From: Shigella phage CWP003 | Sequence record: OL856099 | Reading direction: 5' to 3' (one strand) | DNA: 64,000 bases | Shown here: positions 3,087-60,094 of the stretch, one piece after another | Position numbering within the stretch: the stretch's first letter is position 1 | Layout of the letters: each line of letters starts with the position of its first letter | Notes under the pieces: model-generated | Seen by the model: the letters and a program-made list of their open reading frames with translations, nothing else | The model's database searches: none | Told to the model about the DNA's origin: nothing | Program-made: the position numbers and the translations under genes

Positions 3087-3224
3087 ATGCAAAAGATTAT
3101 TCAGTCACGTTACGTTAAAGTGCGAAATATTAATTGCAACTCTTTGCTTTCTTGGAAATGGGCTGTTTACGACTCGATGCTGATTGGCGTTTTAGTTGCT
3201 GGAGTGCTTTTTAATATTCACTGA
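3087..3224 (+). CDS. small membrane protein (45 aa)
   Basis: ATG preceded by AGAGGAAG; hydrophobic C-terminal segment MLIGVLVAGVLF; below the ORF-table size cutoff. Confidence 0.25.
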   Translation: MQKIIQSRYVKVRNINCNSLLSWKWAVYDSMLIGVLVAGVLFNIH

Positions 3225-3270
3225 ATCGCCTGGCAATGGATTGCCGCAGGATTTTACGCGTATAATGACG

Positions 3271-3531
3271 TATCATCCGTATCAAGTAAGTAGTTGTTTT
3301 CAAAAGAATCTTACGGATGATACGGATGATACGCGTTGCCGCGATACTTTATAGGAATTCAAATAAATTAATTTAAAATTATATATCTAATTTAATTTTA
3401 TTTTTTTATAAACTCTTATATATGAAAAGTATCCGTATCATCCGTATCATCCGTAGCACACCAGTGATAGCGCGGCTTATACACTGATACGGATAAAAAT
3501 ACGCCTCATTTTATCCGTATCATCCGTATCA
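3271..3531. repeat. iteron-like array of 9-bp unit ATCCGTATC (both orientations) flanking an AT-rich core at 3355-3425
   Basis: GTATCATCCGTATC 3271-3284; inverted copies 3314-3334; three tandem units 3432-3458; further copies 3488-3496 and 3514-3531. Confidence 0.6.
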
Positions 3532-3588
3532 CACTAATTAAGGCGCGGCTATATCGGTTGTTATACATATTCAAACCATAATTATTGT

Positions 3589-3617
3589 TTGCCTAAGTTT
3601 TTTTCATTAGATATAAT
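3589..3617 (+). promoter_or_regulatory. sigma70-type promoter upstream of scaffold/capsid genes
   Basis: TTGCCT, 17-nt spacer, TATAAT, about 30 nt upstream of start at 3647. Confidence 0.45.
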
Positions 3618-3646
3618 ACACAATACTTATTTGAGGGTGGATGCGA

Positions 3647-5059
3647 ATGCAAACGGCACGCGAAATTGACAAAAATGGATTCTTGACGATTGTGGGTTGT
3701 CCCATTTCGTCATTTGGCATTTTTGATTATTCTGCAGGTCAGGTTGGACTTGATGGTGATCCGAATCGCATCGTAAAAGTTTATCGCCCAGAGTCAGCGG
3801 TGAAAGACCCCGAAGCGATAGATTCATTCAAAAATATCCCTTTCATCGACAATCACGAAATGCTTTCTGGATTCGAAGGTGATGAGGATAACACAGCACC
3901 CGAAGAGTATGGCGTTGATGGCGTTCTAACTGGCAATGTTTATTATGACAAGCCATGGATGCGCGGCGACCTTAAAGTTTTTAGCCGTCGTCTGAAGAAA
4001 GCCATCGATTCTGGAAAGGTTGACTTGTCTTTGGGCTATGACTGTGAATTCATCATACAGTCTGGAGAGTTTGACGGGCAGCCGTATGAAGTGGTACAGA
4101 CAACTCTTCGCGGCAACCACATTGCTCTCGTGGACGTTGGTCGAGTACCAGGTGCACGGGTGCTGGATGGTCGTTGCTTTGACCATCTTTGTTTGACGAC
4201 TGTAACACCATCCAACGAGGATTTAGACATGCCAAAACCGTTAAAAGGTAAAGCGCGTGATAATGCTGTTGAACAGCTGAAATCACTGATCCCTGCGCTC
4301 GAACAATTTCTGAATGAAGAGAGCACCGAAGCTGCTCATCAGGACGAAGTTGAAGTGAAAGCAGAAGAGAAGGATTCAACCGAAGAACGTGAAGAAGTGA
4401 TGGTTGATCCAGAAGTTAAAGCAGAAGCTGAAGAGACTCCAGAAGGTGAAGAGAAGTTTGAAGTTGAATCTGAATCTCACGCTGGCGGCGAGCTTCCGCA
4501 ACTGATCAGCCAAATCGAAGCACTTATTGCAAAACTGAAAGGTGGCGCGGTAGGTGATGAAGAAGAAGTTGAAGCCGAAGTCAAAGACGAAGAAGTTGAA
4601 GTCAAGGCTGAAGATGTATCACCTTGCGACAAAGCTGAAGATGTGGTTAGCGGCCTGCAAAACAGCAACGTAAAGGGGGCTTCGGTCGAAAAAGATGACA
4701 AACCGACAAAAGCGGCGAAAGCGTCGCCAGGTCCAGCAAAAGGGGAACACTCAATGGCATCTGATTCAGCAGTTGCTGCTTTCTACGCTGATTCTGCTCG
4801 TAAGAATAGCCTCTACCAGCGCCTGTCTAAAGTTGTTGGTGCCTTTGATCATGCAACTATGGACTCCAAGTCCGTAGCGAAATATGGCGCTAAAAAGTTA
4901 GGCTTGAAGTGCGTTGATGGTGCTGAGTTTGACGTGGTGGATAATTATCTGCGCGGCGTTGAACACGGTCAAAAACAGCGTGTAGTCGCAAAACAAAAGG
5001 CCGCTGCGGATTCTGCAGCAACTGACGAAGCATTTGAAGCTTGGTTGAAAGGGGAATAA
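3647..5059 (+). CDS. scaffolding / prohead protease-like protein with acidic E/V/K-rich repeat region
   Basis: GAGGGTGG RBS 6 nt before ATG 3647 (alternative ATG 3641); long acidic low-complexity stretch typical of scaffolds; position before capsid gene. Confidence 0.5.
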   Translation: MQTAREIDKNGFLTIVGCPISSFGIFDYSAGQVGLDGDPNRIVKVYRPESAVKDPEAIDSFKNIPFIDNHEMLSGFEGDEDNTAPEEYGVDGVLTGNVYYDKPWMRGDLKVFSRRLKKAIDSGKVDLSLGYDCEFIIQSGEFDGQPYEVVQTTLRGNHIALVDVGRVPGARVLDGRCFDHLCLTTVTPSNEDLDMPKPLKGKARDNAVEQLKSLIPALEQFLNEESTEAAHQDEVEVKAEEKDSTEEREEVMVDPEVKAEAEETPEGEEKFEVESESHAGGELPQLISQIEALIAKLKGGAVGDEEEVEAEVKDEEVEVKAEDVSPCDKAEDVVSGLQNSNVKGASVEKDDKPTKAAKASPGPAKGEHSMASDSAVAAFYADSARKNSLYQRLSKVVGAFDHATMDSKSVAKYGAKKLGLKCVDGAEFDVVDNYLRGVEHGQKQRVVAKQKAAADSAATDEAFEAWLKGE

Positions 5060-12850: not shown

Positions 12851-13383
12851 TGGCTATCGATTTATTGTCATATAGTCTTTCAAACAGAAGCTTCAAAATA
12901 AGAAGCTTCAACCTTGGGGAAGTGTCAACGCTTGGTTGGGCTATTGTTAACGTAAAAATAAGACTCCAAGCAAAGATATTCAAAAACCAAAGGGAAGACG
13001 GAAGCTATATCGTCGATGGCAGAGTCAAAATGCCTAGAATATTGACTGTGACTGTAATAGCACAGACAAAAAGCGCGTCCGACGCAATCACAAAGATGTT
13101 GCAGAACAGGTCCACGATATACACAATAAATTCTCGTGGGCTAATATTTGAACGTATGGTGCTGCAAAATAACAATTTCAGCCAAGATGCTGACAATATA
13201 ACTTCACAACCCATACAACTGGTATTCCACGAAATATTAACACAGCAGGATGTGTCTATTCAAACAGCGCAAGCAGCCGACTCAACTGTCATCGAGCGCG
13301 GCATAGCTTATATAAAAGAAACCACTGCCAGCGTCACTGGCGTTGCAACAAAGGTGATGAATGGCATCAAGGGGATGTTCTGA
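12850..13383 (+). CDS. hypothetical tail protein
   Basis: ATG overlaps upstream stop. Confidence 0.4.
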   Translation: MAIDLLSYSLSNRSFKIRSFNLGEVSTLGWAIVNVKIRLQAKIFKNQREDGSYIVDGRVKMPRILTVTVIAQTKSASDAITKMLQNRSTIYTINSRGLIFERMVLQNNNFSQDADNITSQPIQLVFHEILTQQDVSIQTAQAADSTVIERGIAYIKETTASVTGVATKVMNGIKGMF

Positions 13384-13943
13384 TGGACTTTGTTTCGATT
13401 CTGCTCTCTGGTCAATCTTTGACCATAACGAATGAGTCAACAGGGATTTCTGTATGGACAAAGCTTTCTCCAGTATCTGCAGAAATAACATCACCAGCAG
13501 AAACCACTCAATTTCCACTTGCTGGAACGGCAATGCAGGTGGTGGAAGTATCAAGCACATCCTCAGTAAGCAATCTACAGGCGGCAAAAGTAATAATGCC
13601 AGCGCACATGGCGCTAAACGTAATTTGCAACGACCAATCGACTATTGAAAACATAATTAATACATTCGACAATGATGAAGTTACATTTTCAATAACTTCT
13701 CGAAGCATAATTGCAAGCAAAATGTCGATGTCTGATGTTGAAATAACTCAGTCAGAAGAAAACCTGAATGGAGTCTCAATTGTAATAACATTTGAACAGA
13801 CGTCATTTAGTATTCAAGGAAGCTTTGACCCTAAACAGTCCGCAGATGAATCGTCAAATGGCGTTGCCATTAAAGAGCCAGTCAGTTTGACTACAACTGT
13901 GAGTTCGTTATATAATAAAATAAAATCAACAGTAGGAATATAA
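13383..13943 (+). CDS. hypothetical tail protein
   Basis: ATG overlaps upstream stop. Confidence 0.4.
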   Translation: MDFVSILLSGQSLTITNESTGISVWTKLSPVSAEITSPAETTQFPLAGTAMQVVEVSSTSSVSNLQAAKVIMPAHMALNVICNDQSTIENIINTFDNDEVTFSITSRSIIASKMSMSDVEITQSEENLNGVSIVITFEQTSFSIQGSFDPKQSADESSNGVAIKEPVSLTTTVSSLYNKIKSTVGI

Positions 13944-13944
13944 A

Positions 13945-14361
13945 ATGAAGATCACCAATAAACAAACTGGTCGTAAAGTAGAAATTAAAATCAGCAAAAT
14001 GACTGCGATGGAAGGTTGGAACATACAGCGCCGATTCATCGAATTTGCAATGTCAAAAGACCCTGCATTTCGTTCAGAATACACAATGGAAGTATTAAGC
14101 TTTGCAAAGGTTGAACTTGATGTAGGGCAAGAAATTCCTCTGAGCACTGGCGCACTTATTGACAACCATCTTGGCGACTGGGAAAACTTGAAATTGGTTT
14201 TCGAAGCGGTGTTGATGGAAAACGGAATAAACCCAGAGACTCATGCTGAACGTGAAGGATACTGGGAACAAGCTGGCGGCGAAATGGCTGCAGCATTCAT
14301 TGGCGAATCGATGCGATTAATCGCGCCATTCCTCAGCGGCGAGACTCCAAACAAGGGGTAA
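13945..14361 (+). CDS. possible tail assembly chaperone
   Basis: position immediately upstream of tape measure gene; no frameshift site identified. Confidence 0.35.
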   Translation: MKITNKQTGRKVEIKISKMTAMEGWNIQRRFIEFAMSKDPAFRSEYTMEVLSFAKVELDVGQEIPLSTGALIDNHLGDWENLKLVFEAVLMENGINPETHAEREGYWEQAGGEMAAAFIGESMRLIAPFLSGETPNKG

Positions 14362-14364
14362 ACT

Positions 14365-16545
14365 GTGTCTGACTCATTAGAAAAATTTGTTCTTCAATAT
14401 ACGGTGGACTTGAAAGAGTCCATCAATCGTCTTGAGCAATTGCAAGATAAGGTTGATCAGACAAATAAAAAGGCAAAGTCCGCTGGCAAAGACTTCACCG
14501 GAGCATTCAAAGATGTGTTCGGTGAGCTGAAGCCTCTCACAGCTGAACTGGGGTCTATTGACGGAATCCTTGCGCGGCTTACTTATCGCTTTGCCGCGCT
14601 CGTCCCTGTTGTCGCAGGATTGGCTGTCGTAGTCAAATCTATCGTTGATGTTCGAAAAGAATACGAAGCGCAAAGGAAGCTTGGATTTGAAGCAGGTCTT
14701 TCACCAATTGGCGTAGAGCAATTACAGCGGCAATTGAATGAAAGTTCAGGCGGAGTTCTTGGTGCGCAAGGGTCAAGGGATTTAATCAGCAAGGCTTCTA
14801 ATCTCGCATTCAATGCATACACCAACCCCGATGTGATGAACAAGGATAACTTGCTGCTGAACAAGATGGGGACCAGTCCTTTCAACAGTAACGGCGGCAT
14901 CAAAGACACAAACCAGCTGCTTGATGAAATTGGCACAAAGCTGAGAAGTGTGAATGAGCAAACCGCTCGTGCTATTGGTGCTCTGGCAGGTTTTACCGCC
15001 GATGAAGTCCGTGCGCTTCGTGAGCGAAATCAATCAGTCAAAGAAAGCACCCGTATAAGCGACGAAGAAACGGCGAAGCTGCAAAGACAGCAGGCTGCGC
15101 TTGAAACGATACGAAACAGCATGGGCCAAATTCAAGAAGACTGGCGACGCATTGAACTGGTAATCGGCGAGAACGTGATGCCAGCATTCTCGACGCTTGT
15201 CAGCAAGACTGCCGATACAGTCGAAGGATTCCAGATGATGTTCCAAAGAATGTCTGATGGATGGTCTGAATTTGTCGACAATTTCATCGCTGACTTGAAG
15301 CACCCGTTTGATAAACAGGCGGCTGTCAACGAGCGCCACGAGCGTGCCGTTGACAGATGGATCACACAGATGGCAGACGGCGATGTGAAACGTCAGAGGA
15401 ACCAGGAGCAAAACGCGGCTGAACAACGCTCTGCGCAAGCACTTTTCACTCGCGACATCAACCTGTTTTCAAGCGCCGTTTCAACCTTTGCTGGTGTTAT
15501 TGATGAGCGACAAGCGTGGGCTGCATGGGCTGGTGAGATAGGACGAAGCGCAGGCCAATCCGCAATGCCTGGAACGCCAGCACTAAGCACTGGTGCGACC
15601 GTAGGTAACAACTTGGGGTCAGGCAATCCGACTGCATATGACTCAATCTATGAGGAAGCATCCAAGCGTTATGGAATCCCTGTTGCGATGATGAAGGCCG
15701 TAACAGAAGTCGAATCTGGATTCAACCCAAATGCCGTAAGCGGAGCAGGCGCGACCGGACTGATGCAAATAATGCCTTCCAACTTCAAGGGTCTTGGCAT
15801 CACAGACGGTAACGACCCAAGACAAAACATTATGGGCGGCGCTCAACTTCTCAAGGAATATTTAACTGCTGCCAATGGCGATTGGAATCTTGCTCTGACG
15901 ATGTATCACGGCGGATACGACCGCAGCGGATGGGGAAAGAACACCCGTGCATATCCTGGCAAGGTCATGGCTGCTCTCGAACGACAGGCGAATGGAGAAT
16001 ACGCCACGGGAGCGCCGCAAGGTGCACCAGTTACTCCAGTGCTTAGCGGTAGCGGAGCAGAAGCGCCGAAAGGAAGCTATGCACCAGTACAAGGCCAATC
16101 CCGCCAAACGGTGCAATACAGACAGTTGCAAGAAGCCATTGCAGGATACCTAAACGTGCCAGTTGAGCAGCTGATGCAAGGGCAAGTTAACAAAGGTGAT
16201 ATTGACTTTGCTCAAACTTACCTTAAACTTGGAACGCAAAGGGATTATATTAAAAACATGCAGCTGGCTTCAACTCCAGGTGTAAGACCGAACATTCAGG
16301 CCGAAGCGATGAAGAATGCTCGTCTTGCGGCATTCCAGCTTGAGGCGTTCCAGAAATACGGCGGCGACCTCTCCGCGAATAGTCGACCTGGTGGGCGTGA
16401 TATTACTATGGGTCAGAAAAACGTTGTCATCAACGTCAACGGCGCTCAAGACCCACGAAGCACGGCTATTGAGACTAAGCGCGTGCTTGAACAAGATGAT
16501 ATCAACGACATAAACAACCTTACTGCTACACCTTTGAAGTGGTGA
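14365..16545 (+). CDS. tail tape measure protein with lytic transglycosylase (SLT-like) domain
   Basis: GTG start; helical N-terminal region; segment YGIPVAMMKAVTEVESGFNPNAVSGAGATGLMQIMPSNF typical of lytic transglycosylases. Confidence 0.6.
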   Translation: MSDSLEKFVLQYTVDLKESINRLEQLQDKVDQTNKKAKSAGKDFTGAFKDVFGELKPLTAELGSIDGILARLTYRFAALVPVVAGLAVVVKSIVDVRKEYEAQRKLGFEAGLSPIGVEQLQRQLNESSGGVLGAQGSRDLISKASNLAFNAYTNPDVMNKDNLLLNKMGTSPFNSNGGIKDTNQLLDEIGTKLRSVNEQTARAIGALAGFTADEVRALRERNQSVKESTRISDEETAKLQRQQAALETIRNSMGQIQEDWRRIELVIGENVMPAFSTLVSKTADTVEGFQMMFQRMSDGWSEFVDNFIADLKHPFDKQAAVNERHERAVDRWITQMADGDVKRQRNQEQNAAEQRSAQALFTRDINLFSSAVSTFAGVIDERQAWAAWAGEIGRSAGQSAMPGTPALSTGATVGNNLGSGNPTAYDSIYEEASKRYGIPVAMMKAVTEVESGFNPNAVSGAGATGLMQIMPSNFKGLGITDGNDPRQNIMGGAQLLKEYLTAANGDWNLALTMYHGGYDRSGWGKNTRAYPGKVMAALERQANGEYATGAPQGAPVTPVLSGSGAEAPKGSYAPVQGQSRQTVQYRQLQEAIAGYLNVPVEQLMQGQVNKGDIDFAQTYLKLGTQRDYIKNMQLASTPGVRPNIQAEAMKNARLAAFQLEAFQKYGGDLSANSRPGGRDITMGQKNVVINVNGAQDPRSTAIETKRVLEQDDINDINNLTATPLKW

Positions 16546-45317: not shown

Positions 45318-46988
45318 ATGTCAATTGAACATGACAATCTTCCAGAGGATACAGGTGATGAATTTGGTGCAATCTTTGACGAAATTCAAGACGCTGGTGT
45401 TTCAGAAGAAATGCAAGCGGCAGAGCAGCAAGGCACCAGAGCTAAAATCAGCCTACAGCACAAGGCTGTTGAGAAAGATGCAGAGCGCATGGAATGCTAC
45501 GGTGAAGAAGACTTGGTTGAAAGAGCACGTTTGCTCGCCTCACTTCAGGTAATCAAGTTCCCTCATTATAAACCGACGAAAGATGATTTTGTTCTTCAGG
45601 CGGACCGGACGAGTGACATGAACCGTTATGCGGTTTTCGACGCGTTGTTTGATAAGGGAAGCGGCATCGTCCCATTCCCTCACAAAGATACTTTTCGTGG
45701 ACGCTTAGTCGACCATCGCGGCGAAACATTCACCGACCGGACGTTGGAAGTCACAGAGATAGTTGCCGCTGTCGATGCAGCAGGCCTGTCCAACCCAAAC
45801 TCACGTCAGGTCGCTCAATCCTATAAGGAATGGGCCATGCGTTATCAGCGCGACGACCTGATGGACTTCTTCTACAAGAAGCTTCCTGAATGGGACGGTA
45901 CTGCGCGCATTGAGAAATACCTTATCGAGCTATTCCGACCGTTCGATACAGAGTTAAACCGACAAATCGGTGTGTATTTTTGGCTATCGCTCTATAACCG
46001 CCTGACCAACCCTGGCTGTCAAGCGCCAATCTCCATCGCGCTCATCGGCGGCCAGAACGCAGGGAAGAGTTATTTTAGTAAGCTGCTTTGCGAAGCTATT
46101 ATGAACGACCGCCACGCAACACCGATTCCGTTGAACTTGGCCGCGCAGAACTTCAACCCGTTCTTGCGAGCTATTACGGGTCGCTCAATTATCGCGAACG
46201 TTGGCGAGATGACGGGCTTTAAAAAGGCCGACATCGAAAACATGAAGGCATTCCTGACTAAGACGGAAGATGACCTGGACTTCAAATTTGAAGACACGCA
46301 GGTCAAACCACGCCAGTGGATTGCTATCATGGACGGCAACGAATACGCAGGCATGCAGCGTGACGATACGGGCAACCGTCGTGTGTATCCTATCTTTGTT
46401 GGCCAACTCGCCGACAAGGACGGGCAACCGAACTGGTCAAAAGACTTCCAAGCTGACCTTTCCACTTTGAAAGAAGACGTTTGGCAACTGATGGCTGAGT
46501 GTGCTGCGTGGATGGAGAAGCACGGCGAAGCAGGTTACAACGCGTTTGTCGGTGAAACGTCTCGCATGCTTACTGAGTTCAGTAAGAACGAAATGGAACG
46601 CGCTCGCGGCGTTATCCGTGATGAGATGGTCGACAACGACCTTGTTGAAGTCGTCATTACCGCGCCTTATGACCGACATCACAGCGGACGCTGGCACATC
46701 ACCAGTGGTGCAATCGCTATGGGATTCAGAGCTAAGTGCGGCAAGTCGCCTTTCTCACGTACCCTTGCGCCGCACATGTCGAAGCTTGGATTTGAGCCTG
46801 CAACCTATCGCAACCAGCGCGGCTACTTTACGCCGCTGATTAAGAATGAAGCAGGGGAATACATTTCTGACTTGATGACTATCTTAGCGTATCTTATTCG
46901 CGACGAGTCTGACCCTGAAGATATTGAATTCTTGAAGAAGGTTATTGAACGCAAACGTTCTTTAGGAAGAGATAAGGATGAATTCTGA
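45318..46988 (+). CDS. P-loop NTPase, primase-associated helicase-like
   Basis: CAGGAGGA RBS; Walker A IALIGGQNAGKSY; 556 aa; follows primase-like gene. Confidence 0.5.
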   Translation: MSIEHDNLPEDTGDEFGAIFDEIQDAGVSEEMQAAEQQGTRAKISLQHKAVEKDAERMECYGEEDLVERARLLASLQVIKFPHYKPTKDDFVLQADRTSDMNRYAVFDALFDKGSGIVPFPHKDTFRGRLVDHRGETFTDRTLEVTEIVAAVDAAGLSNPNSRQVAQSYKEWAMRYQRDDLMDFFYKKLPEWDGTARIEKYLIELFRPFDTELNRQIGVYFWLSLYNRLTNPGCQAPISIALIGGQNAGKSYFSKLLCEAIMNDRHATPIPLNLAAQNFNPFLRAITGRSIIANVGEMTGFKKADIENMKAFLTKTEDDLDFKFEDTQVKPRQWIAIMDGNEYAGMQRDDTGNRRVYPIFVGQLADKDGQPNWSKDFQADLSTLKEDVWQLMAECAAWMEKHGEAGYNAFVGETSRMLTEFSKNEMERARGVIRDEMVDNDLVEVVITAPYDRHHSGRWHITSGAIAMGFRAKCGKSPFSRTLAPHMSKLGFEPATYRNQRGYFTPLIKNEAGEYISDLMTILAYLIRDESDPEDIEFLKKVIERKRSLGRDKDEF

Positions 46989-53992: not shown

Positions 53993-54222
53993 CCGATAAA
54001 CAATACGCAGTCGGGCAGCGTGACATCGAGCAACTCGACGAGGGCGGCTATTATACGCGCCACATCTATGCCATGACGCATGAAGGACTTTACAGCAAGT
54101 CTGACATCGCTGCTGAACTGGCCCATCGTGACTTGCAAATTGACATGTTGCGTCTTGCTCTTGAGAAGCAAACACAAATCGCCATCGAAATTTTGGAGAA
54201 GTTAAATGATACAACGTTATGA
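53989..54222 (+). CDS. hypothetical small protein
   Basis: ATGA overlap. Confidence 0.4.
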   Translation: MTDKQYAVGQRDIEQLDEGGYYTRHIYAMTHEGLYSKSDIAAELAHRDLQIDMLRLALEKQTQIAIEILEKLNDTTL

Positions 54223-54781
54223 TGTTGATTATTGCACGCAGCACGCTTGCACATGCGAAGTTGTAAAGGATGATGAAGGCGGCTATGTTGAATATGAGGA
54301 CTATGCCGCGTTGGAAGCGAAATACAGTGAAGTAAAAAGTCGCGTCGAGCTGGAAGCGAAACATAGTGAAGTTAAAACGTATGCAGTAAACTGCAACGAC
54401 GCGTGGCTTAATACAAAGGGTGATGACACCTCTGGTTCATATGTCAAGTTTTCTGATTATGCCGCGCTGGAAGCGAAATATAGTGAAGCGCAACGCGAGT
54501 TGGTTGCATTACGCTCACAGGTCCGTGATGCATCGGCGCTCGTTAAGCAGTTGCACGATGTTGTTGCTACTATAGTCGTGGATGTTGATGCGCCGAAGGA
54601 AGAAGCGTGGACCGTGTGGCACGGTGGAGAGAATCCGGTGCCTGGGGAAATGGTTGAATACAAGCTGCGCAATGGAGAAGATAAAGTGCTGTCAAGACTC
54701 TCTGACCATCTTCACTGGGGTCATATAGGCGCGTTAAAGGGCAGCGACATCATCGCTTATCGGGTCGTTAAGGAGGGGTGA
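54206..54781 (+). CDS. hypothetical protein with internal DYAALEAKYSE repeat and C-terminal GGENPVPG domain
   Basis: GGAGAAG RBS; internal duplication at nt and protein level; C-terminal paralogy to 52813 gene. Confidence 0.45.
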   Translation: MIQRYDVDYCTQHACTCEVVKDDEGGYVEYEDYAALEAKYSEVKSRVELEAKHSEVKTYAVNCNDAWLNTKGDDTSGSYVKFSDYAALEAKYSEAQRELVALRSQVRDASALVKQLHDVVATIVVDVDAPKEEAWTVWHGGENPVPGEMVEYKLRNGEDKVLSRLSDHLHWGHIGALKGSDIIAYRVVKEG

Positions 54782-55314
54782 TGGGTAACAATGCAGGATG
54801 GGGCAAGCCGCGATACTCCAAACTTGCCCACTACTTTGACAATGGCGAACAAATCAGCTTGTGCGGCAAATTCAATAAGGGCAATACGGAGTTGACCGAC
54901 TCTCAAGAAATGGAGTCAAGTTTAACAATTGGTGATTGCGCGAAGTGTCGCAAGGCATTATATGAATTATTAACTCTAAAGGGATTGAAAGTTGCAAAAT
55001 CAAGGGATGAATGGGTCATGAACGTCTGTGAAGGGAATACAGAATTAATGGATGAATGGCTAAAGACGGATGCGGTCAATGCCATATTCAAAAGGAATTA
55101 TAAGACCTGTATGCGTTACAAGATGAAAGATGATATTATTTTTATGGTATTATCTTATTCAAGGAACACAACGGACGTCAAAAAGCTTCGACAATATCGC
55201 CACAAGGTCATGTGTGAATTGCGCCGTTTAGGAGTGATTGTTGATAATAATGTCATTAAAACGGAGTTGGAGAAGCGGGATAAAAGGAATGGTGACTGGA
55301 AGGTCAGCGGATAA
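54778..55314 (+). CDS. hypothetical protein (last gene of early operon)
   Basis: GTGA overlap; followed by 850-bp non-coding region. Confidence 0.45.
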   Translation: MMGNNAGWGKPRYSKLAHYFDNGEQISLCGKFNKGNTELTDSQEMESSLTIGDCAKCRKALYELLTLKGLKVAKSRDEWVMNVCEGNTELMDEWLKTDAVNAIFKRNYKTCMRYKMKDDIIFMVLSYSRNTTDVKKLRQYRHKVMCELRRLGVIVDNNVIKTELEKRDKRNGDWKVSG

Positions 55315-55580
55315 AGAACACTGTATTGCGTGTTTTGAATAATGGGATGTGTACAATTGGTCGCTTTACGCGGCCTTTTGTTGTTGTTTGGGTCGTGTTT
55401 CGTGATTGAATAATTATGAGGCGATGTTTTATTTATTAATTGTGCGGAAATATTTAGAAATATATATAGACAGGATTGTTAATATTTTAATAGTGTATGG
55501 CTATCGGTCCGTGGTGTTTGTTAGGAATTATCTATGGATTGAAATTTTAGTGTCGTGAAACGTGGTGTTTGAACATATTT

Positions 55581-55937
55581 GATACGCGTAAAATACGGCT
55601 AAAAATTAAGCGTATCATGGCTGCAGGCCGCGCCGTTCCTGGATTCCTCTTTTCCAAATTGGTACACCCTTACGTCATGATACGTCATGGTTTTTTATCC
55701 GTATCAGTGTACAGCCCTTGCCGCGCCTGGCTTGTACATTAATCTTACGGATGATACGGATAAAACTGGGCATCGTTATATATATAATTTGAAAAATTAA
55801 TTAACTCCATTTTGAATTAATTTAAATTAATTTTTTTCTACATCCTCATACTTATGTTAATTTATATATAACGTATTATCCGTAAGATATAAGTAAAAAC
55901 AAAGACTTGCGGCAATACGGATGATACGTCATGATAC
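55581..55937. repeat. second iteron-like array (GATACGGAT / ATCCGTATC units, GTCATGATACGTCATG variants) around an AT-rich core at 55770-55870
   Basis: CTTACGGATGATACGGATAAAAC 55744-55766 and TTTATCCGTATCA 55696-55708 closely match segments of the 3271-3531 array; AT-rich core shares ATTAATTTAAA(T)TA. Confidence 0.6.
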
Positions 55938-56103
55938 GCTTCAACCAGCCAGTAGCGGCTAAGTCATTGATTTGCATAACAAGCGGCGAAAGGGATGGAC
56001 TTCTTTTATACGTATCAAACAGTACACCACGCACCACGGTCCGATATTCATTCAGCACTATGATTTATGTACGTTTACAGCCAATTTGAACATCAATCTG
56101 CAC

Positions 56104-56132
56104 TTGAATATAATGTTCAATCATTATATAAT
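56104..56132 (+). promoter_or_regulatory. sigma70-type promoter for gene 56167
   Basis: TTGAAT-17-TATAAT. Confidence 0.45.
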
Positions 56133-56144
56133 TCACACTATTAA

Positions 56145-56168
56145 TTTGCACTATGGGATTTGCACTAT
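56145..56168 (+). promoter_or_regulatory. two tandem TTTGCACTAT motifs between -10 element and start codon (operator-like)
   Basis: copies at 56145-56154 and 56159-56168, the second overlapping ATG 56167. Confidence 0.45.
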
Positions 56169-56640
56169 GAGTCAAGATTATGTAGCAATGCCTGAAGACT
56201 TTGAAGACCCGCGATTTGCAGAGCATAATCAGGCATTATTCGATGAGTTCATCGACCTTGTTATTCAGGGCCATGACATGCGCGCAGCTTTTGCACTAGT
56301 ATTTGGCATGGAGGTTGCGACCGATAACTACACTGGCCAGCGAATCCTGTGCACTCAGCGCAATCCGTACTACAAGATGCGCTACAAAAAGCGTATGGAA
56401 GAGATGCCATTGAAGGAATTGTGGAGCGTAAAGAGTTCCATTCACAATTTAGTGAAGCTTGTGCGTGATCCAGAAGTCGCAGCATCAGCCAAGCTTAATG
56501 CCATTCGTGAACTGAATATCATCTACGGCATTACGATGATTGATGAAAACGGCAATAGTAAAATGGGCCGTTCCATGGATGATTTCTACAAGGATTTTGG
56601 AGAGGCGGCCAAAGAGGGTGAGCAATTCTCCCGCCACTAG
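56167..56640 (+). CDS. hypothetical protein (157 aa)
   Basis: ATG at 56167 within table ORF 55972-56640; GGGA 8 nt upstream; promoter at 56104. Confidence 0.45.
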   Translation: MSQDYVAMPEDFEDPRFAEHNQALFDEFIDLVIQGHDMRAAFALVFGMEVATDNYTGQRILCTQRNPYYKMRYKKRMEEMPLKELWSVKSSIHNLVKLVRDPEVAASAKLNAIRELNIIYGITMIDENGNSKMGRSMDDFYKDFGEAAKEGEQFSRH

Positions 56641-56644
56641 CCAA

Positions 56645-57038
56645 TTTGCACTATAAAACGGCCCTAGAACACATTTTCTCCACTTCTAGGGCCATCGGTA
56701 ATACGACGGGGAAGGCTGCAACCATAAACGCGTTAGAAAGTGTATTATTATAAGTCATCTTTTAGTCACTTTACGTAACAATTTACGACCTTCCGCCGTC
56801 CAGTCGAACGACTCCACCAGCAAATTTGCACTATAACCTAAGACGATGCGCCCTTTCTCGTTATCTACCCGCCAACAAGTCTCAAATAGCATTCGATTTG
56901 CACTATTAACTATCGCCGCAACGCGCGTTGGGTAAGCGCAATTTGCACTATGGTCATAAAGGGATAAGGTGCGACCACTTCCGATGGACAACGTAGCGAT
57001 GAGAATAAGCGTATTCATAAGCCACCAATTTGCACTAT
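56645..57038. repeat. array of five (A)ATTTGCACTAT motifs in about 400 bp
   Basis: copies at 56645, 56825, 56897, 56942, 57029; variants at 57334, 57344, 57613. Confidence 0.6.
56660..56693 (+). terminator. perfect 10-bp stem hairpin after gene 56167 (terminator or RNA element)
   Basis: GGCCCTAGAA, 14-nt loop, TTCTAGGGCC; no U-tract. Confidence 0.35.
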
Positions 57039-57039
57039 G

Positions 57040-57061
57040 AAAAGCGACCCCGAAGGGCCGC
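57040..57061 (-). terminator. rho-independent terminator for minus-strand gene 57069-57695
   Basis: on minus strand GCGGCCC-UUCG-GGGUCGC hairpin followed by UUUU. Confidence 0.5.
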
Positions 57062-57068
57062 CATTCGA

Positions 57069-57695
57069 TTAGATAATCTGGAAGGTGTAGGACTTGTTGC
57101 CGAACTCGAAGTTCAAGCGTCCCGCTTCTTTAAGCTTCATGCGGAAGCGAATGTGCTTGCTATCCGGTAAGCCCAGCGCGGCGAACGCTACGCGGACTGA
57201 TTTGAACTCGCCTACACCCTCGACCATAACGGCGTTACGGGTGAGACGCTTTTGCGCCACTTCCTTGTTATCCCAACTTTTTGCAATACCTTCGCTATTC
57301 GAACGGCGATGGGAAGGAGTTCCATTTTGCACTACGCAACTTGCACTATCGTTTAGGCCGCTTTTAACGAAGGCTTCATACTCTTCGTCGGTCATCGCGT
57401 CGAGTTCTTCCTGGGTCGGCTCGGCCTTTTTGACGACCGCACGCGCCTTATGCGTTTTTACATCGCTGGACACTTCCTCGCGCGGCTTCGCGTCTGGGAT
57501 GGGCGATTCGTTGGACGGCTCATCGAGCGCGTTTAAGGACTCGATTAACGCGATTACGCGAGTCTCGGCGGTCCGGCGGTCCGCAAACTTCTTAATCGGT
57601 TTTGAGCCGGAATTTGCATTATAGAATGCAACGAGGTCGGCGGTCTTAGTTGCGATAACGTCGCCGCTAGTAGAAAAGCGATTTAAGCTAACCAT
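57069..57695 (-). CDS. hypothetical protein (island gene)
   Basis: AGGAG RBS 8 nt before ATG; CpG-rich codon usage distinct from rest of window. Confidence 0.5.
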   Translation of the reverse strand: MVSLNRFSTSGDVIATKTADLVAFYNANSGSKPIKKFADRRTAETRVIALIESLNALDEPSNESPIPDAKPREEVSSDVKTHKARAVVKKAEPTQEELDAMTDEEYEAFVKSGLNDSASCVVQNGTPSHRRSNSEGIAKSWDNKEVAQKRLTRNAVMVEGVGEFKSVRVAFAALGLPDSKHIRFRMKLKEAGRLNFEFGNKSYTFQII

Positions 57696-57775
57696 AATAA
57701 ACTCCTATTTGTTAGGGCGCTAGGCGCGAAAGAATTTTATTAAAGCGCCGCGCACGACGCTCTAAAAATCCTCTC

Positions 57776-58090
57776 TTACTCTTCGTCGTCTTCGATTAAT
57801 TCGAGGGCGAAGGCGTAAGCTTTGCTATCGTAATTAACTAAAACGGCGAGTTCGAACTCGTTAATAAACGCCGTTTTACCGCATAAATTTAATTCCGCAT
57901 CGACTTCGAAGAATCCGTTTTCGTCGCGCTCTAAGCGAGAAGCAGCGAGTTGCTCGATTACCGTCGCGTCGTTAATTTCTTCGCCTAAGCGAACGCCGGA
58001 GAATTTCGCGAGAATTTCGCCGTAAGTAAGCGTAACGCCCTGGACTTCGGCGGTTGCGTTTTCGAGGGTAAAGCGGGTAACGATAGCCAT
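57776..58090 (-). CDS. small acidic protein (island gene)
   Basis: AGGAG RBS; 104 aa, Asp/Glu-rich; own sigma70-type promoter. Confidence 0.5.
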   Translation of the reverse strand: MAIVTRFTLENATAEVQGVTLTYGEILAKFSGVRLGEEINDATVIEQLAASRLERDENGFFEVDAELNLCGKTAFINEFELAVLVNYDSKAYAFALELIEDDEE

Positions 58091-58158
58091 AACAAACTCC
58101 TAGTTGGGAGAGGCGTTAACGACCTATTCGTTAACTCATCCCGTCCCGATATGAGTAC

Positions 58159-58186
58159 ATTATAATATAGTGTAGAAAAAAGTAAA
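58159..58186 (-). promoter_or_regulatory. sigma70-type promoter (minus strand) for 57776 gene
   Basis: reverse complement reads GTGCTTTACT-16-TATAAT. Confidence 0.5.
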
Positions 58187-58230
58187 GCACTTTTTCGATA
58201 AAAATGCGATAAATTATTTTATCTTTTTTC

Positions 58231-58258
58231 TTTACTTCTTCGTACACTCGCGTATACT
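58231..58258 (+). promoter_or_regulatory. sigma70-type promoter for 58315 gene
   Basis: TTTACT-16-TATACT within CTTTACTTCTTCGTACACT box. Confidence 0.5.
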
Positions 58259-58314
58259 TGTTTATATCGAGACGGGCGATGGCCCTTTCTTCTACTAGCA
58301 TCGGGAGCTTTATT

Positions 58315-58617
58315 ATGACTACTTTAATCTCTTCCATCCTTACTTACGACGAAGACCGCTTAACCGTTCGCTCTCTTATCGCCGCCGTTAACGCGGAACT
58401 CGAAACTAGCATTATTAAAGCGCGCGCCGTCGCCTTCGTCGGCCTTTCCTTCGACGATATTAAGTATGCAGAGTATAGCGCCATTCGCGTCGTTACTACC
58501 GACGATAACGCCGTTACCCTTATCGAGACGGTTACGCCTCGCGGCGAAGCGTTAATTATCGTCGAGTATATCGACGTAGAAGGCGATAAAGCTTATAAAT
58601 ATTTTATCGCAGAATAA
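58315..58617 (+). CDS. small acidic protein (island gene)
   Basis: GGGAG RBS 7 nt before ATG 58315; 100 aa. Confidence 0.5.
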   Translation: MTTLISSILTYDEDRLTVRSLIAAVNAELETSIIKARAVAFVGLSFDDIKYAEYSAIRVVTTDDNAVTLIETVTPRGEALIIVEYIDVEGDKAYKYFIAE

Positions 58618-58629
58618 CGAAAAAAGTGC

Positions 58630-58658
58630 TTTACTTCTTCGTACACTAAGACTATAAT
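58630..58658 (+). promoter_or_regulatory. sigma70-type promoter for 58726 gene
   Basis: TTTACT-17-TATAAT in same CTTTACTTCTTCGTACACT box; conserved leader TTTATATCGAGA. Confidence 0.55.
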
Positions 58659-58725
58659 GTTTTATATCGAGAGGGGATGAGGTAGCGAATAGGTCGCTAC
58701 CCTCCCGACTAACTAGGAGAATATT

Positions 58726-59016
58726 ATGATTACTTTAGCCGCTATCCGTTCCGCTCGCGTCGAAACTTCCGAAAACTCTAACGTATTTGGCGAAAAACTT
58801 AAAAACGTTTATCTCTTTAACGTAGATGCGACTATCGAAGAGCTTCATAGTCCTATCGATTTTAGCGAATTTACGGAACTCGAAGAGGAAGATATTACTA
58901 CCTTCCGCGTTACTATCGAAGGTAAGGTTTATTTTGCTACGGAGTTCGGCGGCGAATATCTCGCGGTATCCGAAGGCGAAGGCCGTTACTCTTTCTTTAA
59001 AATCGTCTCCTTATAA
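58726..59016 (+). CDS. small acidic protein (island gene)
   Basis: AGGAG RBS; 96 aa, Glu-rich; terminator downstream. Confidence 0.5.
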   Translation: MITLAAIRSARVETSENSNVFGEKLKNVYLFNVDATIEELHSPIDFSEFTELEEEDITTFRVTIEGKVYFATEFGGEYLAVSEGEGRYSFFKIVSL

Positions 59017-59035
59017 TACCCTTCCGTTACTAATA

Positions 59036-59060
59036 GGCCGCGCTTAGTCGCGGCTTTTCT
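59036..59060 (+). terminator. rho-independent terminator
   Basis: GCCGCG-CTTAGT-CGCGGC hairpin followed by TTTT. Confidence 0.5.
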
Positions 59061-59531
59061 TCGTCCCTATCTCGATGCGCTTCTCCGCGAAAACTCCTTT
59101 ATCCTTCCCTTCTTCGTCGCATAATCTTCGTCGAGATGCGCCTTAGTTCGCATAACAGGTATTACGTTAAATGGAGAACATCGCGTAAGTCCTTGTTTTA
59201 TATAGACACCTATATCGGACCGTTAGGGAGGGTCGCGTAAGTCGTTGTTTTATAAAGGCGCAAAACTTTCCCTTCGTTCCGAACTAAAACGAGAAATATG
59301 CCGACCCTTCGCCCGAAAATAGTACGCGTGCGAAATTACCGACATCTAGAATAATCCCCACCGATATTATCCTGCGCGCAATCATTCGCTTTCGAATCAT
59401 TATGCTTCATATTATTATGCGTCGAATCATTAGCTTTCGAATTGTAACGCTGGAAACTGTAACGGCGATTGATTATTGCGTTCGTGTGGTTTTTAGGGCA
59501 TGGGTCTTTTGGTGCGTTTTGGTACTTGATG

Positions 59532-59644
59532 AAATTTGCAGTACACTAATCAAAATACGACACATTTGGTCCACTAACTTTTCAAAGAAAAAGTCCTAGA
59601 CAGTACCGTACTATTTTGTGCCCACAGTAAATTTGCAGTACACT
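59532..59644. repeat. pair of perfect 16-bp direct repeats AAATTTGCAGTACACT
   Basis: copies at 59532-59547 and 59629-59644; related to the TTTGCACTAT family. Confidence 0.55.
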
Positions 59645-59713
59645 CCTGCGCGGCAGGCAAAAGAAAGGGCCGCCACAGCGACCCACGATTCACGGTTAAA
59701 TCAACAACACCCA

Positions 59714-60094
59714 TTATTCACTCTTATGGGCATCACCAAAGCCATCCGCAATCTGGCTGATCAATGATTCAATGGACACAGTTTTACCAATTGATCGAGC
59801 GGTAATAGCAAGCATATTATCAATCAAACCATGATTAGATGCATATGTTCCAGGTTTTGAATCATCTTCAGAACAGCCAAAAAGCTGATCGCGAAGACTT
59901 TCAAGAGAACGCTCAATATTTTCCAGCTTCTCTTCTAAATCGGATTGGCGACGTAAAACCCATGTTAAGTCGCGGCTGCCGACTTCCAACCCATCAGAAT
60001 CGCAAGCTGGAACGTCAATTTTGATGCTGCCACCAAAGGCCATTCCGCTGCCTTTAGCATATGTATTGTGAATAGAATCATTTTTATTTGACAT
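59714..60094 (-). CDS. hypothetical protein
   Basis: start taken at internal ATG (MSNKNDS) at 60094 of table ORF 59714-60124. Confidence 0.4.
   Translation of the reverse strand: MSNKNDSIHNTYAKGSGMAFGGSIKIDVPACDSDGLEVGSRDLTWVLRRQSDLEEKLENIERSLESLRDQLFGCSEDDSKPGTYASNHGLIDNMLAITARSIGKTVSIESLISQIADGFGDAHKSE

Follow-up and report, generated by a model that had tools for sequence, protein, structure and literature searches.

In P1, SPP1 and lambda, clusters of repeats flank the packaging cut: these are the hexamers of P1 pac, the pacL-pacC-pacR arrangement of SPP1 and the R-sites of lambda cosB next to Nu1, and to our knowledge each of these phages has one such site. Iteron origins are built from repeats as well, as in the SaPI origin, in which they flank an A+T region 3' of rep, in the ori of P4 with its companion crr, and in oriL and oriR of SPP1. 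T4 has pac-like sequences in genes 16 and 19, which are the subject of a terminase synapsis model.

Closer to the phage considered here are the PB1-like phages of Pseudomonas (Pbunavirus), distant kin of the genus Wifcevirus (PMC11990801). For two of them, JG024 and SCUT-S1, a "putative pac site in an AT-rich region" has been described (PMC10913387; PMC6521218), and upstream of ORF22 of JG024 a sigma-70 promoter was predicted alongside unexplained "AT-rich boxes and conserved motifs" (PMC3008698). These papers did not link the two sites, did not note that they share repeats and made no comparison across genera (PMC10913387, PMC6521218, PMC3008698). In the literature we searched only pieces had thus been noticed, namely the JG024 promoter with its AT-rich boxes and motifs (PMC3008698) and the pac signal; our search of it found no description of paired sites or of their concerted change across genera, nor of a PB1-like replication origin.

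The window (the whole 64,000-nucleotide stretch that was analysed) belongs to a Wifcevirus, an E. coli myovirus of ~68 kb akin to the Pseudomonas PB1-like phages, and is 94-99% identical to WFH, FEC19, ECML-117, Mansfield and Bas98-101. Our analysis firmly supports the conclusion that positions 3225-3640, here called site A, are an internal twin of the packaging-start region at 55.67-55.94 kb (site B) and that they are under selection. The features of site A and its immediate neighbors, in window coordinates, are as follows.

3087-3224: 45-codon ORF, the left neighbor of site A
3225-3640, no strand: site A, a non-coding element of 416 bp reaching from the 45-codon ORF to the protease/scaffold gene
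3269-3284, forward: outer-left repeat pair CGTATCATCCGTATCA, two units
3312-3333, reverse: inner-left inverted array TACGGATGATACGGATGATACG, about 2.5 units
3337-3343, reverse: pan-lineage motif TGCCGCG
3343-3433, no strand: A+T-rich core of site A, up to 95% A+T
3431-3457, forward: inner-right tandem array, ATCCGTATC twice and then ATCCGTAGC
3471-3477, forward: pan-lineage motif CGCGGCT
3485-3494, reverse: single unit TGATACGGAT (9-mer copy at 3486-3494)
3513-3530, forward: two tandem copies of the 9-mer
3544-3550, forward: pan-lineage motif CGCGGCT
3589-3617, forward: sigma-70-type promoter TTGCCT-17-TATAAT, 10/12 matches
3641-5059, forward: prohead protease/scaffold gene, which heads a block of protease, structural protein and major capsid protein

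The sequence-only reading of this stretch had described about 400 non-coding bp ahead of the scaffold gene, ending in a TTGCCT-17-TATAAT promoter, and both descriptions are borne out. Its repeats are present too, with some amendments: the 14-mer placed at 3271 begins at 3270, within CGTATCATCCGTATCA; the inverted copies given as 3314-3334 occupy 3312-3333; the array of supposedly three perfect tandem units consists of two perfect ones (3431-3439 and 3440-3448) and a third, 3449-3457, which is ATCCGTAGC with one mismatch; and the copies reported at 3488 and 3514 are the reverse unit at 3486-3494 and the forward pair at 3513-3530. In all, the 9-mer is present at site A in about 11 units, some forward and some reverse, which lie 60-320 bp ahead of the promoter. 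ATCCGTATC occurs nine times in the 64-kb window against 0.26 expected (0/100 shuffles), with seven copies at site A and the other two at 55697 and 55753, and 17 of the 21 copies of the core word CGTATCA in the window fall within the two regions, site A and site B. The tract that had been called almost pure A+T is equally real, 3343-3433 being the most A+T-rich stretch of the window (reaching 95%) and, with 55775-55840, one of only two at which 60-nt windows attain at least 90% A+T. The inverted arms give single-strand hairpins far beyond what composition accounts for (z -6.6 for 3262-3340 and z -8.1 for 3308-3457), and these two hairpins are mutually exclusive. A search of site A against Rfam gave no family at gathering score (best 20-32 bits, against thresholds of 50-100), and all the sub-threshold matches were driven by the hairpin.

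Other words in and around site A also drew our attention. The exact 15-mer CTTGCCGCGCCTGGC has only two copies in the window, one at 2981-2995 towards the 3' end of the head-fibre gene that precedes site A and the other at 55717-55731 in the left part of site B, and TTGCCGCG has 18 copies, about nine-fold more than a rough estimate of chance. The DnaA box is TTATCCACA; TTATCCGTA, which was compared with it by eye only, has mismatches at critical positions, and because these positions differ and the word changes between enterobacterial lineages the idea of a DnaA box was dropped. GC skew follows the direction of genes and transcription, and no origin signal was found in it.

Two copies of the 9-mer thus lie some distance away, in site B, the features of which are these.

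55673-55765, no strand: left repeat cluster of site B, containing the 21-mer AATCTTACGGATGATACGGAT exactly as in site A
55775-55872, no strand: A+T core of site B; the left end of virion DNA is at 55809
55872-55939, no strand: right repeat cluster, 78% identical to 3258-3324 in inverted orientation
55809-59509, no strand: direct terminal repeat of 3,701 bp, mapped from WFH (PMC6563267, PMC6753283)
56086-56132, forward: tandem sigma-70-type promoters TTGAAC-17-TATAAT and TTGAAT-17-TATAAT ahead of terS
56167-56640, forward: small terminase gene terS, with an N-terminal helix-turn-helix

That 3225-3640 is connected with the region at 55.3-55.9 kb had been suggested from the sequence, correctly so, and the site at 55.8 kb proves to be the left genome end, upstream of terS. 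Window position 55809 is the first base of WFH, WFC, Ro157lw and SP13, the four deposited genomes with terminal repeats; WFC and WFH stem from one study, while Ro157lw (a USA isolate) and SP13 are separate submissions. Korf et al. put the terminal repeat of WFC and WFH at ~3.7 kb (PMC6563267), and for Mansfield a repeat of 3,673 bp was predicted by PhageTerm (PMC6753283). The two sites are collinear, in that the 21-mer is followed 87 nt on by a T-run...TATG motif at both, and both have inverted 9-mer clusters and a GCGGC(A/T) motif around an A+T core, followed by a sigma-70-type promoter. We regard site B as having the classical layout of a packaging start because its repeat clusters flank the cut, terS is directly downstream and the tandem promoters lie between.

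The product of 56167-56640 has a match in PDB 7UXE (E 9e-33), which is the E217 small terminase (E217 being a Pseudomonas phage), and terS is the first gene in the terminal repeat, about 360 bp to the right of the genome end. In nearly all Wifcevirus records, RefSeq included, it is labelled "hypothetical protein", and only in Mansfield is it called a small terminase. It sits inside the terminal repeat, distant from terL; in E217, terS is ~58 kb from terL (PMC9611059). Two ORFs upstream of site B, 54206-54781 and 54778-55314, had been considered as TerS, and PDB gave no match for either; no PDB match was found for the 208-aa gene at 57069-57695 in the terminal repeat. Searches of ten neighboring ORFs with Pfam and PHROGs found no DNA-binding or regulatory annotation.

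At the right boundary of the terminal repeat (~59509) we looked for CGTATCA repeats and there were none, and site A is therefore unrelated to formation of the right end. Unrelated repeats do occur there, between 59380 and 59640, where (T)CGAATCATTA is found three times and AAATTTGCAGTACACT twice; these may mark a right-end cut or an injection stop. Around the left end several further observations can be recorded. Chi (CCACCAGC, top strand), in the orientation readable by RecBCD entering from the left end, clusters just inside it: in MTx (L018) it is at 179, 930, 997 and 1276 (4/5 within 1.3 kb), in L031 six of seven copies lie within 1.2 kb (13236-14439), and the single copy in the window, at 56814, is 1 kb inside the end. 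This clustering fits an exposed DNA end at the left genome end. Judged by eye, the top strand around site B is strongly G/T-rich at 55320-55580 and C/A-rich at 55940-56060, a bias seen in the same way in MTx, MyoSmar, E217 and L032, and the inverted 14-mers ATCGGTCCGTGGTG (~55504) and CACCACGGTCCGAT (~56040) frame site B in a symmetric zone of ~600 bp. Further left, at 54700-55740, WFH (L014 1-1011) and Bas99 have unrelated sequence instead and the Wifcevirus subgroups differ, the DNA directly left of site B being a hot spot of gene turnover adjoining the packaging site.

Is site A cut as well? Neither the deposited records with terminal repeats nor the published end determinations place a virion end within 3343-3433, and all seven determinations (WFH, WFC, Ro157lw, SP13, Mansfield, MTx and MyoSmar) agree on just one left end, which is that at site B. 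On the basis of the published end calls, site A is apparently uncut. The Wifcevirus cut motif AATTAACTCC|ATTTTGAA, which is conserved in L030, is absent from site A; in MTx, ATAGTGTGCGTACACTA at the cut aligns with ATAGTACACTACTA in site A. The sites also differ in their surroundings, since site B precedes terS whereas site A does not adjoin it and is followed by the protease/scaffold gene, downstream of which come a virion structural protein and then the major capsid protein.

The pair is not a peculiarity of one genus. A protease-side and a terS-side site occur in at least four lineages, Wifcevirus, Myosmarvirus, Salmonella phage PCSE1 and Pbunavirus, and each of these four has a repeat word of its own that is common to both its sites. 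In Myosmarvirus (Serratia phages MTx, whose protease is 54% identical, and MyoSmar) the word is TACTTTTCG(TTTTT), and TACTTTTCG occurs essentially only upstream of the protease gene and at the PhageTerm repeat boundary upstream of terS; in both phages this boundary falls within the equivalent A+T core, and in MTx a 22-mer adjoining the cut is common to both sites. PCSE1 has ATATCGGC and CCGTTATATGC at its protease-side and terS-side sites, and Pbunavirus E217 has CAAATTACC, the two E217 sites sharing collinear blocks that are 79-84% identical. An unbiased k-mer test, in which words present three or more times in the gap ahead of the protease gene were matched genome-wide, gave the same result in Wifcevirus, PCSE1 and E217: words from the protease gap recur almost only at the terS-side site. 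The MTx words are sparser, and their second cluster was missed by this test and came to light only when the words were mapped directly. In the window as in MTx and E217, sites A and B are also the top two A+T peaks of the sequence. The pac site of the Pbunaviruses JG024 and SCUT-S1 is the homologous element in the sister genus. In JG024, 36 of 161 long reads begin at 59,376 +/- 5, with a matching pac restriction fragment, and this is the one read-start pile-up reported (PMC10913387); position 59,376 falls between the two repeat clusters of JG024 site B, and the promoter predicted for ORF22 falls within the core of JG024 site A. In seven further, uncultivated lineages a terS homologue is preceded by a long gap that holds an A+T core and a word peculiar to the lineage. 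The exception is Xanthomonas phage XcP1, which has no array upstream of its protease gene and has a single element that adjoins the helicase gene, 2.5 kb from terS. Two matters of annotation arose in these genomes. The gp77 ORF of E217 (L025, 58488-59108) and JG024 (59205-59786) overlies the site B element, with its repeats, A+T core and a C-rich tandem repeat of 39 bp, and gp77 is probably not a real gene; in PCSE1 (L023/L022), an unannotated VapE-type helicase frame spans the start of the circular record (68553-69920 plus 1-~170).

The 9-mer array is found in the relatives of the window, site A being 94-99.8% identical among 28 Wifcevirus records. Counting variable alignment columns across 11 Wifceviruses, we obtained 2.8% for the A+T core (2 of the 71 columns of 3355-3425), 4.7% for the right repeats and 0% for the promoter/RBS segment at 3589-3640, which is invariant in the 11 genomes, in comparison with 3.2% for the protease gene, 16.6% for the gene upstream of site A and about 30% for the spacers at 3225-3268 and 3334-3354. 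The core, right repeats and promoter of site A are thus conserved like coding DNA, a pattern that points to purifying selection. Bas101 lacks exactly one 9-bp unit of the inner-left array (3312-3333). Single positions vary as well: at 3485, the outermost base of the single reverse unit, the window has T and ten other Wifceviruses have C, and in Bas99 a T at 3456 makes the third tandem unit perfect. At site B, conservation between the Wifcevirus subgroups is lost to the left of 55742. In WFH an arm of site B matches the corresponding arm of site A at 43 of 45 positions, which indicates sequence exchange or a shared constraint. The suggestion made from the sequence that the repeats form an ordered, functional cis-element is upheld by the recurrence of the architecture, in the same position and with different repeat words, in three other lineages, and chance or a recent duplication as the source of site A is ruled out by conservation and recurrence together.

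What, then, reads these repeats? Judging from the sequences compared, the same factor or factors very probably bind both sites. For the protein that reads the 9-mer, the small terminase, acting through its N-terminal helix-turn-helix, is our tentative choice, a possibility with nearly as much in its favor as against it. The other candidate binder is a VapE-type SF3 helicase encoded on the forward strand at 45318-46988, which is conserved up to residue ~440 and divergent beyond, with a variable C-terminal winged-helix domain at residues ~420-556. When the TerS helix-turn-helix and the helicase winged helix were set against the repeat word over 11 lineages, the result was mixed and the sample small. 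The second helix of the TerS motif does not differ between Wifcevirus and L030, whose words have the CGTATCA core in common, nor between MTx and MyoSmar, and other lineages have a different one; against co-variation, L031 and L034 have similar TerS helices and different words. The recognition helix of the helicase is near-identical in two pairs with unrelated words (Wifcevirus and L032; L037 and L038). This co-variation of TerS with the word, seen in most pairs of lineages, is suggestive though not decisive, and would favor TerS as the candidate binder. A second motif needs to be considered here. GCGGCAA/TTGCCGC (consensus ~TCGCGGC(A/T)A) is the only G+C-containing word common to all lineages; it is enriched ~7-10-fold in the sites, reverse to the left of the core and forward to the right, and in the more distant L036-L038 and XcP1 it is itself the repeat. 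In Myosmarvirus the recognition helix of the helicase deviates and the GCGGC motif is altered too. There are hints here of two pairings, in which TerS would be the partner of the lineage words and the helicase that of the GCGGC motif.

The mechanism we favor, somewhat more tentatively still than the identity of the binder, is that TerS positions the cut at site B and has a regulatory or architectural role at site A, where no end is made. A single sequence-specific protein, encoded by the phage, would recognise the 9-mers of site A and site B alike. Its complex would bend or loop the core of site B and position the TerL cut, in the manner of P1 pac or SPP1 pacL/pacC/pacR. An identical complex would form at site A without an end being made, and the element, ~165 bp upstream of the protease-scaffold-capsid promoter, would most likely act as a regulatory or architectural site that couples expression of the head genes, or local opening of the DNA, to how much terminase is present. 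Recruitment of the winged-helix SF3 helicase may be a separate function of the GCGGC motif, in which case both twins would also be origins. A more specific version, which we consider rather doubtful, is that a small terminase/pac complex that does not cut at the internal pac copy couples capsid production or origin firing to packaging; a cis-regulatory link from packaging to head assembly would then be conserved from Pbunavirus to Wifcevirus. Several points speak against a terminase. It is odd for a pure terminase site that the repeats of site A are more numerous and more perfect than those of site B, which is the one that is cut, and we know of no well-established precedent for an uncut second TerS site. 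Iterons around an A+T core beside an SF3-helicase gene have the look of a textbook origin, and that the XcP1 element has stayed with the helicase gene, 2.5 kb from terS, also counts against the terminase. For E217 TerS, no appreciable DNA binding was observed in vitro (PMC9611059).

Could the two sites instead be twin origins? The winged helix of the SF3 helicase would bind the repeats or GCGGC, the core would be the unwinding element, A and B would both fire, and site B would be cut only because pac determinants overlap it, much as SPP1 has oriL and oriR and P4 has ori and crr. We consider this, the main rival of the terminase reading, unlikely, if by no means negligible, and the two are compatible. 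Inverted repeats do surround the most A+T-rich 60-mers of the genome; site B immediately follows the 3' end of the helicase gene in MTx and PCSE1, and that of a "DNA primase" gene in the same position in MyoSmar, E217/JG024 and XcP1, and in XcP1 the element adjoins the helicase gene away from terS. The authors of the SCUT-S1 study likewise proposed the A+T region of pac as a possible origin (PMC6521218), and a second origin accounts for two copies, one of them uncut, without additional assumptions. However, the cut lies between the repeat clusters in four genera, suggesting that a complex bound to the repeats positions the terminase, the recognition helix of the helicase hardly changes between Wifcevirus and L032 or between L037 and L038, whose words are unrelated, and in Wifcevirus the helicase gene is ~30 small genes away from site B while adjacency to terS has been kept. 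The sequence-only reading had weighed a late enhancer against an origin, which is supported in part; it missed the link to the genome end. We retain the late enhancer because a sigma-70-type promoter follows site A, as an improbable alternative in which a dedicated phage transcription factor on the 9-mers switches the sigma-70-type promoters of terS and of the protease-scaffold-capsid block, with the genome end in site B being set by other signals. Both sites are insulated between operons, with terminator, element and promoter reading rightwards into morphogenesis genes, a layout found also in MTx, MyoSmar, PCSE1 and E217; the -35 element at site A (TTGCCT) is imperfect, the promoter/RBS segment does not vary among the 11 Wifceviruses, and Pbunavirus 14-1 relies on host RNA polymerase with extra phage factors. 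Each genome has only two arrays, the portal, TerL and tail operons having none, and site A is therefore not a general late-promoter enhancer. Moreover, repeats spread over 60-320 bp upstream of the -35 around a 90-bp A+T core are unlike the usual activator sites, a DNA end between the clusters in four genera is left unexplained, and no DNA-binding regulator was found among the neighboring ORFs.

Two further possibilities concern packaging itself or its history. Site A might be a secondary start of low frequency, cut by terminase in a minority of cases to give genomes or sub-genomic DNAs that escape standard end calling; its core is collinear with the cut core of site B, its repeat array is the stronger one, and ATAGTACACTACTA in site A of MTx is the counterpart of the cut motif ATAGTGTGCGTACACTA. 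We think this quite improbable, given that all seven end determinations lead to one left end, at site B, that a single pile-up of read starts was reported for JG024, that site A lacks AATTAACTCC|ATTTTGAA and that an internal cut would leave a phage whose terminal repeats are fixed with defective genomes. It is scarcely credible, finally, that site A survives without a function from a past duplication of pac. The sites are plainly paralogs of each other, but the pair holds its place in Wifcevirus, Myosmarvirus, PCSE1 and Pbunavirus alike, the words of both its sites have changed in concert, and conservation of the core and right half matches that of coding DNA.

[quoted passage not shown] A conserved pair of cis-elements in each genome, one of which holds the packaging start, offers concrete targets for engineering and rebooting, showing which positions insertions should avoid and which elements a plasmid would require in order to transduce or replicate, and the role of an uncut pac copy ahead of the capsid genes becomes a question that can be tested directly. 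If the small terminase does bind site A, a terminase subunit would have a new regulatory role; if the binder is the SF3 helicase, the PB1-like/Wifcevirus group would have its twin origins identified.

How does this arrangement compare with the systems described at the outset? Like the packaging starts of P1, SPP1 and lambda, site B has repeats on both sides of a bendable core that holds the cut and is directly upstream of terS, and site A has the same repeats and core as site B. Unlike them, there is a second full copy, apparently uncut, ~16 kb away in the block of head genes, the core is an unusually long tract of nearly pure A+T, and TerS binding is putative. With the origins of SaPIs, P4 and SPP1 the sites share inverted repeats around an A+T-rich core; one copy is 3' of a VapE/P4-alpha-type helicase gene with a C-terminal winged helix, as in iteron origins, and the genome has two copies far apart, which is the case in P4 and SPP1 too. 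In contrast to those origins, the end of virion DNA here lies inside the core, the recognition helix of the helicase does not track the lineage word and the origin role is putative. T4, too, has two terminase-recognised sequences per genome, one of which is not used as an end, but its sequences are short and intragenic, in a phage with no fixed ends, and have no A+T core or repeat array.
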